38,738 bases of DNA. It comes from a virus. Within the stretch, counting starts at the first letter, position 1. Every line of letters begins with the position of its first letter. The notes beneath the pieces were generated by a model, which saw only the letters and a program-made list of their open reading frames with translations, was not told the DNA's origin and did no database searches. This document shows, piece after piece, positions 1,547-38,738 of this stretch. The stretch spans positions 1 to 38,738 of the IMG/VR virus record IMGVR_UViG_3300034069_001386; one strand, given 5' to 3'. The position numbers were made by a program, and so were the translations under genes.

Positions 1547-1921
1547 GTGACACTTACACCAGACGAGCGCGATGCGCTCGAAGACCGCAACACCGAACGA
1601 CTCGATGATGCCCCGCGAGCAGCACACCGCCTCGAAGTCTCGCTGAGCCTGAAGCGCGGGTTGAACTACCACCTGCGGTGCCTAGGTGATCGCGAATCCC
1701 GCTGCCACCTCTGGCAGGAGGACGAAGCCGACCCGACCACGCTCCAGGAGCACGAGTACTGCGCTGCGGTCGACTGGTGGCACTACGACACACAGTCGTC
1801 GGTCGAGAGCTATGTCGGCCCCGACCGAGACAGCGTCGTCACCGGCGAGGTGAACCTGCTGATGTGGGGCGAAAACGGCATCGAGTGGGAGTACCTCGAG
1901 ACACCGGAGGCCCGGCCGTGA
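1547..1921 (+). CDS. Hypothetical protein (124 aa), first gene of the accessory operon
   Basis: GTG start preceded by GGTGGGAG. Codon usage is richer in A/T-ending codons than the structural genes. Stop overlaps the next start (GTGA). Confidence 0.6.
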   Translation: MTLTPDERDALEDRNTERLDDAPRAAHRLEVSLSLKRGLNYHLRCLGDRESRCHLWQEDEADPTTLQEHEYCAAVDWWHYDTQSSVESYVGPDRDSVVTGEVNLLMWGENGIEWEYLETPEARP

Positions 1922-2028
1922 AGCACGTCATCACGATCGAGATCGATGACGACTACGACGACCTCGACGAGATCAAGCAGCTGCTCGACGAGAACGCGTT
2001 CCTGTACGACGTCAAGACGCTCGCGTGA
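1918..2028 (+). CDS. Hypothetical very acidic mini-protein (36 aa)
   Basis: GTGA overlap with both neighbours. Sequence VKHVITIEIDDDYDDLDEIKQLLDENAFLYDVKTLA. Confidence 0.4.
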   Translation: MKHVITIEIDDDYDDLDEIKQLLDENAFLYDVKTLA

Positions 2029-2381
2029 GGTACGAGCGCATCTGTCAGGTCCCGTCCTGCCAGACTCCCGTCGTCGAGGGGTTGGACTACTGCGCGCCTC
2101 ACATGGCTCGTAGGCTCATCCAGGAGGCGGACGCGCTTCGCGCTCGTGCACGAGCGCTTGAGTCGATCCGGCGCGGCATCCGTCTCGGCCGCAAGCCACT
2201 GCGGTTGCGCGATCGGATCTTCTCGTCCGACGGCGGATCCGCGGAGGAACTCACGGCCGCCGAGACGAGCGAGCTCTATGCGTGGGCCGGCGACAAGATC
2301 GCCGAGGTCGAGGCTCACGCCGCTCGTCTCGATGCGACCGTGCACATCGATCGGCGAGCCGCGGAGTCGACCGAATCGTGA
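2025..2381 (+). CDS. Hypothetical protein (118 aa) with N-terminal Cys/His cluster
   Basis: CQVPSCQTPVVEGLDYCAPH followed by a helical Arg/Ala-rich region. Coupled starts and stops. Confidence 0.55.
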   Translation: MRYERICQVPSCQTPVVEGLDYCAPHMARRLIQEADALRARARALESIRRGIRLGRKPLRLRDRIFSSDGGSAEELTAAETSELYAWAGDKIAEVEAHAARLDATVHIDRRAAESTES

Positions 2382-2596
2382 GCGTGCACGCTACGCATGT
2401 GCCTCGTCCTCGCGGTGAACTCGATCCGGCGGATCTCCGCGCGATTCGGAAGGCGCTCGCCAGCAGGGACAAGGCGGACCAGGCGGTGCGGGACGCGGTA
2501 CTGACCGCGATGGACCACGGCGCCTCGTTCCGTGTCCTCGCCGAAGCGACCGGCATCGCCGGGACCACGATCCAGCGTTGGAAGAACGAACGCTGA
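2378..2596 (+). CDS. Small helix-turn-helix DNA-binding protein (72 aa)
   Basis: C-terminal SFRVLAEATGIAGTTIQRWKNER looks like a resolvase/transposase-type HTH. GTGA overlap with the upstream gene. Confidence 0.6.
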   Translation: MSVHATHVPRPRGELDPADLRAIRKALASRDKADQAVRDAVLTAMDHGASFRVLAEATGIAGTTIQRWKNER

Positions 2597-6227: not shown

Positions 6228-6403
6228 AGGCACAGATCCGCGAGGCCCTCGCTGAGGCGCAGATCGTCCTCGCCGCCATCACCGAACTCGGTGAGCGCAT
6301 CGCCGCAGGCGCCGTCGACGACGGGACCCGCGACGAGCTCGCAACCGACCTCTACTTCGGGGCCGCACGCCTCGCTGCGTTCGCGGGCCAGGTGGCGGCA
6401 TGA
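6221..6403 (+). CDS. Hypothetical helical protein (60 aa), first gene of the ParB operon
   Basis: The ATG lies inside palindrome copy 3. The stop overlaps the ParB ATG (ATGA). Confidence 0.5.
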   Translation: MTQAQIREALAEAQIVLAAITELGERIAAGAVDDGTRDELATDLYFGAARLAAFAGQVAA

Positions 6404-7341
6404 GCACCGCGACCTCGTCCCTAGAGTTCCTCCTCGCCCGTGCCGCGGTCCGCTCCGACGCGGTCATGCACATCGTGTCCCGCCGCGACAGCGGCCTCCT
6501 CAACCCGATCTGCGCCGCGCACCCGATCCGGTCCCAGAAGATCGACGAGTGGGCCACGGTCCCCGCCGACCTCTCCGCACTCTGCTCGGACTGCGCCGCG
6601 ATCGCCGCCGGCATCAAGGGCGTGCCCTCCGTCGAGGTCGGCATCGCCGTGTTCCTCGGCGGCGACACCGACGGCGCACCCGTCTCACTGCTCACCGAGG
6701 TACCGATCACCTCGATCGACCTCGCGCCGGCACACGCACGCCGCACCCCCGGTGACGTCGACGACCTCATCGCATCCGTCACCGAGCGCGGTGTCGTCAC
6801 CCCCGTGCTGCTGCGCCGGGTCGGCGGCCGGTTCGAGGTCATCGACGGCGCCCGCCGCCTCTACGCCGCACACAAGGCCGGCCGCACCACCGTGCCTGCC
6901 ATCGTCCGCGACACCACCGACAGCGACGCGCTCCTCGACGCCCTCACCGCGAACCTGCACCGCACCGACCTGAACCCGATCGACCAGGCCCACGCCTACC
7001 AGCACGCGATCGTCACGCTCGGGCTGCAGTCGAAGGCGGAGCTCGGGCGGCTGCTCGGGATCTCGCGGGAGAAGGTGTCGAACACGATCCGCCTCCTCGA
7101 CCTCCCCGCGGAGGAGCAGGACGCGATCGCGCGTGGCGAGCTCACGGTCGAGGCGGGCCGGAAGCTGCTCGCCGCCCCCAAGGCGCCGGCCGAGGATCTG
7201 CCTGACGTGGCCGGGCTGCTCGCGGAGCTGCTCGCCGCGAAGGTCGCCGTCACTTCCCGCGGGGGCAAGACGCGGATCGTCATCGCCGTCGCAGACGCTG
7301 AGGCGGAGCGGATCCTCGGGCGGCTCAGCGCCGCGGCCTGA
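6400..7341 (+). CDS. parB: ParB/Spo0J-family protein with about 95-aa N-terminal extension; no ParA partner in the genome
   Basis: FEVIDGARRLYAAHKAG (GxxR box), LNPIDQAHAY, HTH KAELGRLLGISREKVSNTIRLL, and a C-terminal TRIVIAVADAEAERILGRL dimerisation-like end. Confidence 0.8.
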   Translation: MSTATSSLEFLLARAAVRSDAVMHIVSRRDSGLLNPICAAHPIRSQKIDEWATVPADLSALCSDCAAIAAGIKGVPSVEVGIAVFLGGDTDGAPVSLLTEVPITSIDLAPAHARRTPGDVDDLIASVTERGVVTPVLLRRVGGRFEVIDGARRLYAAHKAGRTTVPAIVRDTTDSDALLDALTANLHRTDLNPIDQAHAYQHAIVTLGLQSKAELGRLLGISREKVSNTIRLLDLPAEEQDAIARGELTVEAGRKLLAAPKAPAEDLPDVAGLLAELLAAKVAVTSRGGKTRIVIAVADAEAERILGRLSAAA

Positions 7342-7344
7342 GCT

Positions 7345-7373
7345 ACTTAGCGGAACGCACGTGCCACTTAGCG
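7345..7373. repeat. Two direct ACTTAGCG octamers 21 bp apart, flanking the palindrome GCACGTGC
   Basis: Read directly. Lies immediately after the parB stop. Confidence 0.6.
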
Positions 7374-7383
7374 AGCGTCGGTG

Positions 7384-7405
7384 GTTTCAAGTACGTTTCG
7401 AGTAG
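7384..7405. repeat. Tandem 11-bp repeat GTTTCAAGTAC / GTTTCGAGTAG
   Basis: Read directly. Sits in a locally AT-richer non-coding stretch. Confidence 0.6.
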
Positions 7406-7449
7406 GTCCTGGAGCAGCGCCGGCTAGTCGTCGCGAAGAGCGGGGACCA

Positions 7450-7466
7450 GAGACGTTCAGCGTCTC
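7450..7466. terminator. Hairpin GAGACG-ttcag-CGTCTC
   Basis: Read directly. Lies between convergent parB and the DUF4236-like gene. Confidence 0.4.
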
Positions 7467-7471
7467 GACTC

Positions 7472-7509
7472 CTGATGGCCCGGCCGGGAATGCTCAGCCG
7501 GGCCATCAG
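7472..7509. terminator. Hairpin with perfect 13-bp stem (CTGATGGCCCGGC ... GCCGGGCCATCAG, 12-nt loop)
   Basis: Read directly. Lies 14 nt from the stop of minus-strand gene 7523..7822. Confidence 0.65.
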
Positions 7510-7522
7510 TGTGCGAGGACGC

Positions 7523-7822
7523 TCAGGGGCGCTTGCGCTGCCTCATCGAGCGCACTACGCCGGCGATCACCACGCCGACCACGAAGGCCGAGGCGATGAT
7601 GCCGAAGCCCACCGCCGGCAGGAGCAGTGCGAGCAGGGTCCCGGCCACGATCGCGCCGGCAACAATGAACACCTCGACGGGCGCGAGCGGCGGCACGGGC
7701 CGCCTGCGGCTATGACTGTCGGGAGAGTAGGACACGGGTCCGACACGGATACTGCTCCGTAGGCCGCTCCTGCCGACCGAGACCCGGAACGGGCCGAGCC
7801 CGCCTCCGATGCGAAGACCCAT
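7523..7822 (-). CDS. Membrane protein with DUF4236-like N-terminus (99 aa)
   Basis: MGLRIGGGLGPFRVSVGRSGLRSSIRVGPVSYS resembles the DUF4236 pattern. The C-terminus has two hydrophobic helices. Internal start of track ORF 7523..8047. Confidence 0.55.
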   Translation of the reverse strand: MGLRIGGGLGPFRVSVGRSGLRSSIRVGPVSYSPDSHSRRRPVPPLAPVEVFIVAGAIVAGTLLALLLPAVGFGIIASAFVVGVVIAGVVRSMRQRKRP

Positions 7823-7880
7823 CAGCGGACTGACTCGCGGCTGACCATGGCGGCAGCATGCCCTAACTTGTGCGCATTCA

Positions 7881-8696
7881 TCAGGCGACGCTCTCGAAGC
7901 CGGTCGCAGTCGCGTCCGCAACAGCCCGCAACGCGGCCTCGTCGACGTGCAGGTACCGCTGGGTCGTCGCGATGCTCGCGTGCCCGAGGAGCTCCTGCAC
8001 GGCCCGCAGGTCGCGGGTTGCCCGGTAGGCGGCGGTGGCGCCGGCATGACGGAGGCTGTGCGGGTTCCAGCCGGTGCGCGCCTGGATCGTGTGGTGGATC
8101 ACGTCGGCGGACAGGTGACCGCCGTTCCCGTCTGGGAAGTAGTAGTCCCCGGGGTTGACGCGCTCGAGCTCGAGGAGGGCGTCCATCAGCATCGGGTTGA
8201 TCGGCACGCGTCGCTGCTTCTCGCCCTTGCCGAGTACGCGGAGGTGACCGTGGTCGCGGTGCCGACTGTGCAGGGTGGCGATCTCGTTGCGCCGGAGGCA
8301 GCCGAAGCGGGCTAGCAGGATGATCGCCCGGTCGCGGGTGCTGGCGCCCAGCAGTGCGAGCTGGATGTCGGCGTCGACTGCCACACGGGGCACCGTCATC
8401 GTCTTGCGGACGGGCGCGAGCCGGGCAGAGGGGTCGCGGGGGATGTACTCCTCTTCGAATGCCCAGGCGTAGAACAGCCGCAGTGCGGTGCGGATGGATG
8501 CCCGGGTCTCGGCCTTGTGAGTGAGCCGGCGGGCGGCGAGGAAGCCTTCGAGCTCGACGCGACCGACAGCGAGGAGGTCGCTGTGTTCGGCAGCGAACTG
8601 CCGGAGATAGACGAGGCGGAGGCGGACGGTTCCTGCGCTGCGTCCTGCAGCGAGGAGATGGTTCGAGAACTGTTCGAGGAGAACGTCGGTGTTCAT
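7881..8696 (-). CDS. int: Tyrosine integrase (XerC/D-like, 271 aa; a TTG at 8759 is an alternative start)
   Basis: Catalytic pattern: ARFGCLRRNE (R), GKGEKQRRVP (K), HSLRHAGAT (HxxR), LLGHASIATTQRYLH (H..Y). SAM-like N-terminal core-binding domain with no obvious arm-binding domain. Confidence 0.85.
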   Translation of the reverse strand: MNTDVLLEQFSNHLLAAGRSAGTVRLRLVYLRQFAAEHSDLLAVGRVELEGFLAARRLTHKAETRASIRTALRLFYAWAFEEEYIPRDPSARLAPVRKTMTVPRVAVDADIQLALLGASTRDRAIILLARFGCLRRNEIATLHSRHRDHGHLRVLGKGEKQRRVPINPMLMDALLELERVNPGDYYFPDGNGGHLSADVIHHTIQARTGWNPHSLRHAGATAAYRATRDLRAVQELLGHASIATTQRYLHVDEAALRAVADATATGFESVA

Positions 8697-8808
8697 AAGT
8701 GTGGGTAGCCGTTCGACAGGCCCGTGCCGGGTAGCACGGGAGAGATGGACTCGCCGCAACTGACAGCGAGAGGAACATACGTTCGAAACTGGACGCGCAA
8801 ACCGACCT

Positions 8809-8825
8809 CCCTAGGTTTCCCTAGG
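8809..8825. repeat. Two CCCTAGG heptamers 10 bp apart, between the repressor stop and the integrase start
   Basis: Read directly. Confidence 0.5.
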
Positions 8826-8848
8826 CAAGGGTGCTCGCGAGTGCAGAT

Positions 8849-9229
8849 TCAGGCGGCTGCGACACCACTTTCTGCATGTTGCGAGAGTTGTAACCACCGT
8901 GTTACAGGCAGCACTCCGTTGCCCGTCTCCGGGGAGGCGTCCGAGTGCTCGCCACCGTCAGGCCCATAAGGGGTCTGCGGTAGTTCACCTGTTCGAATCC
9001 AGTCGACGTCGACGCCTGTGGCGAGGGCCCAGGCGTTGAGCACAATGGCTCGCATCTTGTCGGCCGGCGTCTTCTCGAGCTCGTAGTTCGTGACGGTGCC
9101 TCGGGAGACACCGATGAGGTCGGCGAAGCGTGCAGCGTCCATCTCGGGGCCCAGCTGGGTGCGGGCGAGGCGCAGGCGCCATCCGATGGTGAACTGCGGG
9201 TAACGCCGATCATGGGTATTGATCGTCAT
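8849..9229 (-). CDS. XRE/cI-type HTH repressor (126 aa from ATG 9229; GTG 9235 alternative) with a disordered C-terminal tail ending VAAA
   Basis: HTH_3 pattern IGWRLRLARTQLGPEMDAARFADLIGVSRGTVTNYE ... VDVDWIRTGE. The last 17 or so codons switch to rare A/T-ending codons. Confidence 0.75.
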   Translation of the reverse strand: MTINTHDRRYPQFTIGWRLRLARTQLGPEMDAARFADLIGVSRGTVTNYELEKTPADKMRAIVLNAWALATGVDVDWIRTGELPQTPYGPDGGEHSDASPETGNGVLPVTRWLQLSQHAESGVAAA

Positions 9230-9241
9230 GTGCACAAGCTA
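9230..9241 (-). promoter_or_regulatory. Putative -10 (TAGCTT) plus 6-nt spacer GTGCAC directly abutting ATG 9229 (leaderless layout)
   Basis: The minus strand reads TAGCTTGTGCACATG. Same 15-nt architecture as at 10630-10644. Confidence 0.45.
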
Positions 9242-9246
9242 GAGCG

Positions 9247-9266
9247 CTTGCGCACTCCTGCGCAAG
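9247..9266. promoter_or_regulatory. 20-bp palindromic operator CTTGCGCA-ctcc-TGCGCAAG (outer arms AGAGCG/CGCTCT extend it to 9241-9276)
   Basis: Read directly. Overlaps a TTGACT (-35-like) on the minus strand upstream of the repressor gene. Confidence 0.6.
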
Positions 9267-9409: not shown

Positions 9410-9574
9410 TCATCGCTGGTCCGTCGCCCCGAGGAGCAGGGCTCCGATTGCCACATCAAGCGCGAGAGCAGATCGCCGGACCTCAGAGCTAGACGCATGC
9501 TCGACCGCGCGACGGAGAGCCCACTGCATGATGCGGGCCTCCTCCCGAGTGAAGGAAAGACAGATTCTTTCCAT
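9410..9574 (-). CDS. Hypothetical mini-protein (54 aa), low GC3
   Basis: Hand translation gives MERICLSFTREEARIMQWALRRAVEHASSSEVRRSALALDVAIGALLLGATDQR. The ATG shares one base with the upstream TGA (TGATG). Below the track cutoff. Confidence 0.45.
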   Translation of the reverse strand: MERICLSFTREEARIMQWALRRAVEHASSSEVRRSALALDVAIGALLLGATDQR

Positions 9575-9771
9575 CAGACGTCGCACTCCAGACCAGCATC
9601 GGGGTGCAGTCGGAGGGTGACACGGCCGTCTTGATCCGCAGCTCCATCAGTGGTGCCGACGTACTCGAGGCGAACGATGACGTTTCGATCCAGGCGGACG
9701 AGATCGCCCGGTTGCAGTCGCATGCGGTCTCTCCCGAACTCGGCTGTCGACAGGTTGAAGATGTTCCTCAC
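9574..9771 (-). CDS. Hypothetical protein (65 aa), possibly an AbrB/MazE-like beta-barrel
   Basis: LQPGDLVRLDRNVIVRLEYV fits a swapped-hairpin-like pattern. GTGA overlap upstream. Low GC3. Confidence 0.5.
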   Translation of the reverse strand: MRNIFNLSTAEFGRDRMRLQPGDLVRLDRNVIVRLEYVGTTDGAADQDGRVTLRLHPDAGLECDV

Positions 9772-9983
9772 GCGTCACCTCGGGACTGCAGCGCTTCCCA
9801 GATCTTCTCGACGATGCGGTTGGCGCCGACAGGGCGGGGTCCGAACACCCGGCTCATGTGGTCCTCACCAACCAGGACGTCGACGACGCGCCCGAGAGTC
9901 GCCTCGGCTCGCTCCGCTCGAAGCGCCCACTGCACAACGAGCGCCTGCTCCGGGGTGAGGTCGGGCGGAACCGGATGGGTCAT
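9768..9983 (-). CDS. Hypothetical protein (71 aa) sharing an E(E/Q)AxxxQWALR motif with the 54-aa product
   Basis: LTPEQALVVQWALRAERAE compared with FTREEARIMQWALRRAVEH. ATGA overlap with the upstream gene. Confidence 0.5.
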   Translation of the reverse strand: MTHPVPPDLTPEQALVVQWALRAERAEATLGRVVDVLVGEDHMSRVFGPRPVGANRIVEKIWEALQSRGDA

Positions 9984-10555
9984 GCGACGTTTTCCCCGGT
10001 CCCCTCAGTGACTTCTCCGCCACGAGTACTGTCCGCGGCCCCAAGCGCCCCGGCTCTACGTGCTTCGAGCACCCACCGCGACGCAGTTGTGTAGAGCAAG
10101 TCAAAGTGCTGAGCGACGGCTTTCGTTGGAGCGAAACCGTCCCCAACAGCAGCCCGATAGACCTCAGCCACTTCTTGGAGCAGAGCAGGAGTGATGCGTC
10201 GCCAGGGGGAACGCGGGGTTGCCACCTTGGGCGCCTGTGACAGGACTTCCTTGAGCAGACGGCGGACTTCCTGTTCTTGCGCGATGCTGAGCGCTCCGGG
10301 GGCCTGTCGTGGCTCAGGCAGCGGCCCAAGCATGTCCAGTAGGGGCTGACCAAATACGGTCGCAAAGCCGACTGCCTCGTCGAGGTCAATACGCCTTTGC
10401 CGTCCAGAGCCGGCGGACGCTTCGATCTTCGAGATCGCTGCCTGGTCGACTGCATAGCCGGCCGCGATCATCCGTCGAGAGAGCTCGGCCTGAGACCACC
10501 CCAGCCTCACCCGTTCGTCCTTCACTCGGTCCGCGAAATGCTGCGCTGCTGTCAT
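9980..10555 (-). CDS. Second XRE-family HTH regulator (191 aa) with an extra C-terminal HTH-like segment; divergent from the early operon
   Basis: DERVRLGWSQAELSRRMIAAGYAVDQAAISKIE (HTH_3). C-terminal TKAVAQHFDLLYTTASRWVLEARRAG. Start taken at MTAAQHF. Confidence 0.7.
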   Translation of the reverse strand: MTAAQHFADRVKDERVRLGWSQAELSRRMIAAGYAVDQAAISKIEASAGSGRQRRIDLDEAVGFATVFGQPLLDMLGPLPEPRQAPGALSIAQEQEVRRLLKEVLSQAPKVATPRSPWRRITPALLQEVAEVYRAAVGDGFAPTKAVAQHFDLLYTTASRWVLEARRAGALGAADSTRGGEVTEGTGENVA

Positions 10556-10566
10556 GAGCACTATCG

Positions 10567-10595
10567 TTGCGCACCTGCTCAAACTTGTGCAAGTG
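10567..10595. promoter_or_regulatory. Switch-region repeat R1: TTGCGCACCTGCTCaaacTTGTGCAaGTG
   Basis: 29-bp direct repeat of R2, 49 bp away. Contains TTGCGCA/TTGTGCA half-sites and an AAACTT-GTGCAA-GTG module. Confidence 0.6.
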
Positions 10596-10615
10596 GTGCG
10601 TCCCTCTTGCTGGGA

Positions 10616-10644
10616 CTACGCACCTGCTCTACGTTGTGCATGTG
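10616..10644. promoter_or_regulatory. Switch-region repeat R2: CTACGCACCTGCTCtacgTTGTGCAtGTG, includes the -10-like TACGTT and the start codon of the early operon
   Basis: TACGTT (10630-10635), then the 6-nt spacer GTGCAT, then GTG at 10642. This is a leaderless layout. Confidence 0.6.
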
Positions 10645-10827
10645 AGCAATGCTGACCTCGTGACCACCGCCGAGGCGGTACAGATCACCGGTCGAACCAG
10701 GTGGTCGCTGTACCGCCTCGTGAAGCAAGGCCGCCTCCCCGTGGCCATGAAGCTCCCCGCAGCGACCGGTGCCTACATGTTCGACCGGGCCGACGTCGAA
10801 GCTCTCCGCAAGGAGATCGCCGCGTGA
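10642..10827 (+). CDS. Small HTH (MerR/excisionase HTH_17-like) protein, Cro- or Xis-like (61 aa)
   Basis: VTTAEAVQITGRTRWSLYRLVKQGRLP. First gene of the rightward early operon. Confidence 0.65.
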   Translation: MSNADLVTTAEAVQITGRTRWSLYRLVKQGRLPVAMKLPAATGAYMFDRADVEALRKEIAA

Positions 10828-38293: not shown

Positions 38294-38738
38294 CCACCAC
38301 CTGGCCCACTCAGCTCGGCAAGCTCGCGACCGTCACCGCCTCCGGGACGGTGCAGGCCGGGAAGCACAACAGCTACAACGCGACCTCCGGCGCGATCACC
38401 GCCACGCTCCCGCCGCTCACCAGCGGCGCTGTCGCGACCGCGCTCACGGCCGGGCAGATCGTCCGCGCGAAGATCACCAAGTCGAAGTCCGACACGTCCA
38501 GCAACGCGGTCACCATCGCCTGCGCCGGCAGCGACACCTTCGAGAGCGGCTCGACCTCGCAGACGCTCCTCGTCGCCGGCGAGAAGCTCACCCTCATCGC
38601 CACGACCGTGCCCGGCGGGACCGGCCCGGTCTGGGTCGTCGAGGAGCACACGCACCCGCGCGACTCCGCCGACCTCCGCTACGCCTTCCCCGGCGACACG
38701 CTCCGGCTCCGGAACCGCCAGCCCGGCCCCCCGGTGAC
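38290..38738 (+). CDS. Tail fibre/receptor-binding protein, N-terminal part (continues at 142 after removing the overlap; full product about 548 aa)
   Basis: GTG at 38290 overlaps the TGA of the upstream gene (GTGA). The frame stays open to the window end and is in frame with ORF 11..1339 through the 141-bp overlap. Confidence 0.7.
   Translation, partial: MTTTWPTQLGKLATVTASGTVQAGKHNSYNATSGAITATLPPLTSGAVATALTAGQIVRAKITKSKSDTSSNAVTIACAGSDTFESGSTSQTLLVAGEKLTLIATTVPGGTGPVWVVEEHTHPRDSADLRYAFPGDTLRLRNRQPGPPV
38598..38738. repeat. Right copy of the 141-bp terminal overlap (identical to 1-141)
   Basis: Same as the left copy. Most simply a circular-contig closure artefact of a k=141 de Bruijn assembly. 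Confidence 0.95.

Follow-up and report, generated by a model that had tools for sequence, protein, structure and literature searches.

A putative integration-dependent immunity cassette with a non-tRNA-like attachment core in the genome of an uncultured actinobacteriophage

Introduction

The IMG/VR virus record IMGVR_UViG_3300034069_001386, analyzed here over its whole length of 38,738 nt (the window), probably carries, in viral form, a cassette for integration-dependent immunity (IDI), in which the repressor gene rep is followed by the integrase gene int and the phage attachment site, attP, lies within the 3′ part of rep. Such a system has been worked out for mycobacteriophage BPs (Cluster G), where attP lies inside gene 33 and the integrase is also tagged (PMC4557955, PMC3694055); the function of the repressor tag is established for BPs only (PMC4557955). 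The same layout had been proposed for this DNA in an earlier note, and it is now supported by homology to the systems of BPs and Gordonia phage Wizard, by an invariant DNA island in the repressor tail, by an apparent host–phage junction in a related contig (L008), by the repressor tails of the whole family, and by the lysogens of relatives. We put the probability that the window holds a BPs-type IDI cassette at roughly 0.78, and we hold to the same degree that attP lies in the repressor tail. That its core is at exactly 8890–8910 is the most probable assignment, made with somewhat lower confidence.

The window is the circular genome of a temperate actinobacteriophage in non-integrated form. 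It has an exact 141-bp direct terminal repeat (1–141 = 38598–38738), which gives a circular genome of 38,597 bp. Because such a repeat at both ends reflects a circular assembly, the window represents the free (attP) form and not a chromosomal prophage.

Results and discussion

Repressor and integrase

The rep gene occupies 8849–9229 on the minus strand, stop codon included. It encodes, in the full-length viral form, a 126-residue immunity repressor of the XRE family, as assigned from the open reading frame (ORF), a match to phrog_2328 ("transcriptional repressor", E = 1e-18), and the homology to BPs and Wizard. A tblastn search with Rep matched 187 actinophage records (82 Mycobacterium, 61 Gordonia, 32 Brevibacterium, and 11 Arthrobacter), and the matches among those listed are annotated as immunity or transcriptional repressors. 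The AlphaFold2 model, built with 14 homologues, shows a five-helix helix–turn–helix (HTH) arrangement with pLDDT values of 81–93 over residue blocks 11–80 and low confidence (pLDDT 42–58) for residues 81–126. According to this model, the confident HTH fold spans residues ~10–82, and the tail is predicted to be disordered. The DNA-binding domain corresponds to codons 1–82 (8984–9229, minus strand), which also form the conserved part of the alignment and are predicted to be kept in the prophage, and the poorly conserved tail corresponds to codons 83–126 and the stop (8849–8983, minus strand). The earlier note let the HTH domain end at WIRTGE, followed by a low-complexity tail, and both are indeed present; the motif, however, stands at residues 77–82 and not at about 88, and the tail has 44 residues rather than about 38. 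Its final VAAA was read correctly and is, in full, GVAAA (8852–8866, minus strand). Judged from this sequence and from the tails of relatives, it is a candidate ssrA-like degron that is predicted to be lost on integration.

The int gene lies directly downstream on the same strand, as previously described, both minus-strand ORFs being confirmed. It extends over 7881–8696, with the ATG at 8696, and encodes a tyrosine integrase of 271 residues with the C-terminus ...GFESVA. Int matches PF00589 (E = 4.8e-22, residues 119–253) and the SAM-like core-binding domain PF02899 (residues 7–82). Since these two Pfam domains account for most of the protein, Int has no arm-binding domain, and IDI integrases have been described as armless (PMC6109161, PMC3694055). 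The C-termini of 33 Int homologues are AA or VA in 30 cases and AAS in one more; the SVA of the window's Int is a candidate tag-like degradation signal.

The candidate attachment core

The codon usage of rep changes abruptly near its end, where an earlier reader had already remarked on rare A/T-ending codons. Such codons make up 12 of the 17 at positions 108–124, where the G+C content at third positions (GC3) is 0.3–0.4 versus 0.84 in ten reference genes of the window; in these genes TTA represents 0.1% of the Leu codons, and GTA, ACA, and AGT each represent 4–5% of their families. A second GC3 dip is found at codons 76–90. It had been suggested that the DNA at the aberrant codons is constrained by something other than coding. 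This holds for the first six or seven of them, which form an island of 21 nt, but not for the A/T-rich codons after the island, which are unconserved in relatives.

The island, TGCCTGTAACACGGTGGTTAC (8890–8910, minus strand, codons 107–113), comprises the first of the aberrant codons (CCT GTA ACA CGG TGG TTA) and is our candidate for the attP core. Viral-form relatives with the rep-then-int order come from four independent lineages, namely L002, L003, L004/L005 (Int 85% identical), and L006 (Int 69%). In a 700-nt alignment of the window with L005, L002, and L003, 63% of the DNA columns are invariant in the HTH-coding part and 24–27% in the tail outside the island. The island is invariant in all of its columns (21/21); no other invariant run in the alignment reaches this length, and the chance probability of such a run is ~3e-11. 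The third codon positions are invariant at 7/7 in the island versus 3/37 in the rest of the tail. As all synonymous sites are kept despite the rare codons, the constraint at the island acts on the DNA and not on the protein. The island occurs once in the window.

In the core, the 6-bp spacer ACGGTG separates the arms of an inverted repeat, GTAAC and GTTAC, and a conserved TGCCT extends the core to the left. This arrangement has the anatomy of a tyrosine-recombinase core, in which the spacer would be the crossover region. In L006, an in-register variant is found (CTGTATC-GACTCG-GATAC), with one base changed symmetrically in both arms and a different spacer; it looks like a change of recombination specificity, as expected of a recombinase core site. 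The core does not appear recognizably tRNA-like. The island encodes LPVTRWL, versus DSNxQPT or EGFEPPT peptides in the tRNA-type relatives. ARAGORN and Rfam found no tRNA or tmRNA gene in the window and no Rfam match around the island, although neither would detect a short tRNA 3′ fragment.

The L008 junction and the host site

A junction at the island is seen in L008, a contig of 3,994 bp from ENA whose Int is 76% identical to that of the window. Collinearity of L008 with the window extends from int to parB, and a repressor body is absent upstream of int. The contig opens with 220 nt that resemble no part of the window and in which a gene with a strong coding signal begins (GC3 0.84); they are followed by AACACGGTGGTTAC, by an in-frame ...TRWLRHEIHSARGALAA*, which is what the repressor frame gives from the island on, by the conserved hairpin described below, and by int. 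The junction reads ...CAGGGGTACGAA|ACACGGTGGTTAC|GGCACG... The switch from non-phage to phage DNA falls exactly at the island, on its left arm, with the rep tail (...GALAA*) and int kept and the rep body absent. Such an order of host DNA, core, tagged tail, and int is that expected of the int-side junction of an IDI prophage, and we regard it as suggestive rather than conclusive. For the core type of the window, the junction seen is this int-side one alone. L008 also has a second integrase-family gene between int and parB (1691–2434, minus strand, 247 aa), with none in the window.

The flank of L008 that adjoins the core shows no coding frame, and the target in the host is therefore probably intergenic; it also appears not to be tRNA-like. 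Non-tRNA bacterial attachment sites (attB) are known for Gordonia phages with tyrosine integrases, where they represent 3 of 13 sites (PMC5559632). The 43-residue N-terminus of the presumed host gene at the junction has no homologue and no Pfam match. The 18-mer made of the L008 host arm and spacer has four genome matches, all in unrelated organisms and with the similarity limited to the pattern, and for the host-arm 19- and 20-mers IMG/VR and the metagenomes have none. In IMG/VR, 15 matches were obtained with the degenerate 16-mer GWAACACGGTGGTTAC, mostly on low-GC contigs. None showed a rep or int homologue, except that a contig of 36% GC had a marginal similarity to Int by tblastn (32% over 53 residues, E = 8e-4).

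Repressor tails and lysogens of the family

The repressor alignment was used to scan IMG/VR, and the 76 loci obtained were classed by genomic context. Where an int homologue lies just downstream of the copy, [AVILSG]A is the ending of 26 of 29 distinct tails (AA in 20 of them), two further tails end in a BPs-like KAS, and none is a tRNA-encoded peptide. In the copies that lack int and either are overlapped by an opposite-strand tRNA gene or occupy the extreme end of a provirus contig, 23 of 24 distinct tails are tRNA-encoded peptides (DSNQQPSD, EGFEPPTF, and similar) and none ends in [AVILSG]A. The repressors measure 98–152 residues in the first class versus 87–111 in the second. In L001, where the aligned HTH region is 81% identical to that of the window, the repressor gene terminates within a tRNA-Arg gene, and in one provirus contig (L060 and L044) int and rep stand at opposite ends. 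The prophage-form repressors of the relatives thus appear to be truncated and tag-less.

The complete genomes of Frigoribacterium sp. PhB160 and Marisediminicola sp. LYQ134 contain int (53% identical) at the prophage edge, beside the host def and glycosyltransferase genes, and no repressor body is found upstream of int in either lysogen. In that of Frigoribacterium, a tRNA 3′ fragment (...LDSNQQPAG...) and the repressor tail ...KVRAA* precede int. Because the integrated relatives have int at the edge, with host genes on its upstream side, attP does not lie downstream of int. Integrated copies with an intact rep ORF and junctions elsewhere, the outcome by which the earlier note proposed to refute its model, were not found. 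It can be mentioned here that L107, a Logan contig from SRR8477874 (38,430 bp), is an independent assembly of a Frigoribacterium-type prophage and begins exactly at the tRNA-derived core (GAGTTGGACTCGAACC...). A break made by the assembler at the duplicated core would produce such a start, as would an origin of the contig from the excised form.

Of the integrase homologues found in named bacterial genomes, the closest belong to Frigoribacterium, Marisediminicola, and Microbacterium, which makes a host in the Microbacteriaceae, or neighboring this family, probable. The window has 68.9% G+C and contains portal and other virion genes, and no portal of an isolated phage is more than 37% identical to its own. 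A megablast search of the rep–int region against 50,697 isolated-phage records gave no match, and a more distant search matched part of int only.

Comparison with known systems

The E-values given here for BPs and Wizard are those of pairwise comparisons. Rep is 38% identical to BPs gp33 (E = 8e-16) and Int 34% identical to gp32 (E = 4e-31). In both phages, rep is located upstream of int on the same strand, attP is in the 3′ part of rep (annotated inside gene 33 in the BPs record, a candidate site here), and the viral repressor and Int have tag-like C-termini. The two systems differ in their cores: that of BPs is formed by a tRNA gene 3′ end (...RPEGFEPPTF...), whereas that of the window is palindromic and not of tRNA type. 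In BPs, moreover, rep and int overlap, while in the window they are separated by a gap of 152 bp with conserved elements; the BPs Int has 398 residues, with extensions, compared to 271 here; and the BPs rep is directly divergent from cro, while four genes intervene here.

The nearest isolated-phage homologues of both Rep and Int are those of the Wizard/Twister6 group. Rep shares 47% identity with Wizard gp47 (E = 4e-20), and the integrases share 38% (E = 1e-41). Wizard also has a small Int (295 aa), a repressor ending in ...EPAAA, and an HTH gene divergent from rep. However, its core is tRNA-derived (...RRDSNPKPS...), and the rest of its genome is unrelated to the window. Gordonia phages Wizard and Twister6 have been described as having intact IDI systems, as a prediction (PMC5559632). 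The Bifidobacterium prophages Bb423phi2 and 689b-1 have int at one attachment site and the repressor at the other, and reconstruction of their viral repressor adds 18 residues at the C-terminus, with an ssrA-like tag (PMC6109161). Compared by this description, they share with the window a similarly short removable tail, and they differ in the phylum branch of the host and in the integration site. The model, mostly documented in Mycobacterium phages according to the earlier note, is accordingly not confined to them (PMC5559632, PMC6109161): beyond Mycobacterium, where IDI is established, it is predicted for phages of Gordonia and Bifidobacterium. What is particular to the window is the non-tRNA core together with an expanded regulatory region.

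Proposed mechanism

On the basis of the above, rep and int would be read leftward, probably as one leaderless transcript from a promoter just upstream of rep. The 44-residue tail ending in GVAAA would target the viral Rep to a ClpXP-type protease, by analogy with BPs gp33, and the free phage would make little active repressor. The armless Int, with its tag-like ...SVA end, would recombine the core inside the tail-coding DNA, with the crossover placed within 8890–8910, with a host site that is not tRNA-like. Integration would leave rep codons 1 to ~111–113 at one end of the prophage, reading into host DNA, while the last ~13 codons with the tag would go to the other end together with int, which would then be parted from the rep promoter. 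The truncated, tag-less repressor would accumulate and maintain lysogeny. Both the proteolysis of the tagged forms and the stabilization on truncation are drawn from analogy with BPs.

The gap between rep and int

The gap (8697–8848) measures 152 bp, where 150 had been given, and contains both elements that had been named in it. The two CCCTAGG heptamers, 10 bp apart, are found at 8809–8815 and 8819–8825, and 0.09 matches of this double motif are expected per shuffled window. Read along the minus strand, they form TTGCCTAGGGAAACCTAGGG (8809–8828), with two CCTAGGG repeats, which recurs as TTGCCTATGGATTCCTGGGG and similar sequences in relatives. The 7-bp-stem hairpin consists of CCCGTGC (8721–8727), a 6-nt loop, and GCACGGG (8734–8740). 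It is located on the minus strand, 25–44 nt upstream of the int start, with the invariant loop and stem top GCTACCCGGC, and its consensus fold shows compensatory changes in 3 of 7 pairs across six sequences. The gap as a whole folds with z = -3.46. A third element, the near-palindrome GAACGTATGTTC (8773–8784, minus strand), has GTACATATGTAC or GTACCTATGTAC at the same place in relatives and is a candidate operator or promoter element. It resembles the core of the BPs operator, CGACATATGTCG (PMC4557955), and may be bound by the repressor. All three elements recur, in diverged form, in the relatives. A terminator scan of the gap found no terminator-like site, and no known RNA family was found in the rep–int region with Rfam.

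The CCCTAGG repeats and the gap hairpin were also considered as crossover sites and were discarded, as in L008 both stay on the phage side with int. The heptamer GCTACCC has two copies within 8701–8740. One is part of the hairpin loop (GCTACCCGGC, unchanged in six relatives) and the other directly precedes the int ATG (GGCTACCCAC); int has no obvious purine-rich ribosome-binding site. The GCTACCC repeat may be a control element for the translation or transcription of int.

The region downstream of int

Directly downstream of int lies an ORF of 107 aa (7523–7846, minus strand) with a hydrophobic C-terminal segment and no family match. A gene of 97–130 aa is found at the same place in L004, L006, and L008, and the ORF of the window would sit near the int-side end of the prophage. 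Between this gene and the convergent parB-like gene (6400–7341), a perfect hairpin with a 13-bp stem is found at 7472–7509 (CTGATGGCCCGGC, 12 nt, GCCGGGCCATCAG), which is probably a bidirectional terminator. The interval 7342–7522, which the earlier note had named as an alternative location of attP, and which holds this hairpin, was rejected, because the integrated relatives have host DNA on the other side of int.

Promoter and early region

A putative rep promoter is located at 9236–9265 (minus strand) and consists of TTGCGC, 18 nt, and TAGCTT, with the rep ATG 7 nt downstream, which suggests a leaderless mRNA. It is conserved upstream of rep in relatives, and a strict sigma-70 scan was negative for it. 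The putative −35 element is overlapped by a perfect 18-bp palindrome, TTGCGCA-N4-TGCGCAA (9248–9265), which has no second exact occurrence in the window; at 10575–10592 it recurs with three mismatches. A promoter-like motif, approximately TGCGCA-n3-GCTC-TAnnTT-GTGCA, has four copies, at 9226–9265 (minus strand), 10568–10595, 10613–10645, and 7859–7877 (all plus strand). For three of these, an ATG or GTG is spaced as in a leaderless transcript, namely at the rep start, at 10593, and at the start of the HTH_17 gene (10642), and the fourth, at 7859–7877, is antisense into the 3′ end of int. Since the motif is common to rep and to the early rightward sites, it may hold the repressor operator.

The first gene of the rightward early operon (10642–10827, plus strand) encodes a Cro/Xis-like HTH_17 protein (PF12728, E = 2.2e-7; phrog_66, "excisionase and transcriptional regulator"). 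It lies ~1.4 kb from rep, and the divergent rep/cro pair is accordingly not found in the window. Instead, four leftward genes with overlapping stops and starts intervene (9410–10582, minus strand), the first encoding a 200-aa regulator of the XRE family (9980–10582) and the others being ORFs of 71, 65, and 58 aa without family matches. In L002 this block is absent and rep stands directly opposite the HTH_17 homologue, while in L004 and L005 a different extra XRE gene takes its place. The block may be a second repressor or an accessory module. Gordonia phage GMA5 also departs from the canonical IDI organization (PMC5559632), and rep–cro divergence is typical of IDI, not essential to it.

A conserved joint at the WIRTG codons

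A second conserved DNA segment in rep, TTCGAACAGG at 8988–8997 (codons W77–G81), is invariant in close relatives. In the wider family, the codon before Thr in the W-L/I-x-T-G motif is CGA in 9/9 of the Arg cases and GAA in 10/12 of the Glu cases, that is, the third-position A is conserved. The repressors P0002 and P0005 have identical N-terminal 73 residues and then, just before WIRTG, different tails, one of the PVTRWL type and the other of the tRNA type. This suggests a conserved DNA joint at the W77–G81 codons at which tail–attP–int cassettes are swapped. The overlapping sequence TTCGAATCC (8993–9001) was considered as a tRNA T-arm remnant marking attP and was rejected: its flanks are unpaired, it encodes the family-wide WIRTG, and it is also present in relatives whose true tRNA-derived core is further downstream.

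Alternative readings

A number of points weigh against an IDI cassette in the window. Only ~13 residues would be removed from Rep, compared to 33 in BPs (PMC4557955). The sole junction comes from one 3,994-bp contig of a different phage, with a coverage of ~2.3 according to its name; this contig may be a chimeric assembly or carry a replaced gene, and its left arm equals the phage arm at only 4 of 7 positions. The exact island 21-mer has no match in IMG/VR, in 185,579 species genomes, or in the JGI metagenomes, and no attB, attL, or attR with this core was found in the same collections. The rep–int layout is in itself not diagnostic of IDI, because Arthrobacter phage Galaxy has an adjacent repressor and tyrosine integrase, called reminiscent of IDI by its authors, and attP elsewhere (PMC5513430). 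Galaxy differs from the window, however, in having no recognizable degradation tags and an attP five genes from int (PMC5513430), whereas the window has the tags and the conserved island within rep. Finally, with the rep/cro pair broken and a second XRE regulator present, Rep may not be the sole repressor.

This last point leads to the first alternative, in which the 200-aa XRE protein is the main CI-like repressor and rep is an accessory or vestigial IDI module; attP inside rep would still be compatible with it. As the first gene of the leftward operon, this HTH_3 gene directly faces the Cro/Xis-like gene, L004 and L005 also have an extra XRE gene there, and intermediates in which an IDI core has acquired further regulators are predicted by a published evolutionary model (PMC3694055). 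On the other hand, L002 has no such gene and manages with rep alone, and the conserved promoter-like region of rep shares a 24–33-nt motif with two rightward early promoter-like sites. In addition, the tag, the island, and int are intact and conserved, and the module is therefore under selection. We consider this alternative unlikely, albeit the best placed of those examined.

The second alternative is a conventional switch, in which phage and prophage have the same repressor and attP is placed in the gap or downstream of int instead of inside rep. The island would then be a binding site or an RNA hairpin that regulates int or rep, and the -AAA end would be incidental or serve general turnover. 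The missing attB speaks for it, as does the case of Galaxy; the island, being a small palindrome, could be bound by a regulator, and the other conserved gap elements could belong to attP. However, the junction in L008 falls at the island and not in the gap, whose elements stay with int, and in the complete-genome relatives int stands at the prophage edge with host genes upstream. In L006, the symmetric arm change and new 6-bp spacer are more readily understood in a recombination core than in an operator. The division of the family's repressors into tagged viral and truncated prophage forms is also hard to account for under this alternative. We judge a conventional switch to be slightly less probable still. 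The last alternative, that the codon anomaly is a functionless scar of recent mosaic recombination, which joined lower-GC foreign DNA to rep, draws on the exchanged tails of P0002 and P0005 and on the unconserved A/T-rich codons after the island and may hold for codons 114–124, but it is largely refuted for the island and very improbable as a whole, because a scar would not hold 21 nt with every synonymous site invariant across four lineages when the flanks are ~25% invariant.

Implications

For the IDI reading, a broader and much more tentative proposal can be made, which we think doubtful as a whole. The tail, the attP core, and the armless Int would form an exchangeable cassette that is retargeted by small changes, namely symmetric changes in the 5–7-bp arms and a new 6-bp spacer (GTAAC-ACGGTG-GTTAC versus GTATC-GACTCG-GATAC). 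It would be swapped onto identical HTH domains at TTCGAAC in the WIRTG codons, which is conserved even at synonymous sites, and in the window it would have an intergenic, non-tRNA target and coexist with a second CI-like regulator. If this is true, the phage would be a natural intermediate between the minimal three-gene IDI switch and complex switches, in line with the evolutionary model of Broussard and Hatfull.

An IDI cassette in the window would extend the BPs type to an uncultured lineage of actinophages. Across about 80 loci, the family also offers a diagnostic rule, since repressors have an -AA-type ending where int follows and a tRNA-encoded ending at prophage edges, and in annotation the same repressor gene should be expected to differ in length between phage and prophage. 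The present analysis indicates further that attP can be pinpointed without the host genome, as an island of synonymous-site conservation. If the attB is found, the core of ~21 bp with its armless Int may provide a compact integration tool for high-GC Actinobacteria.

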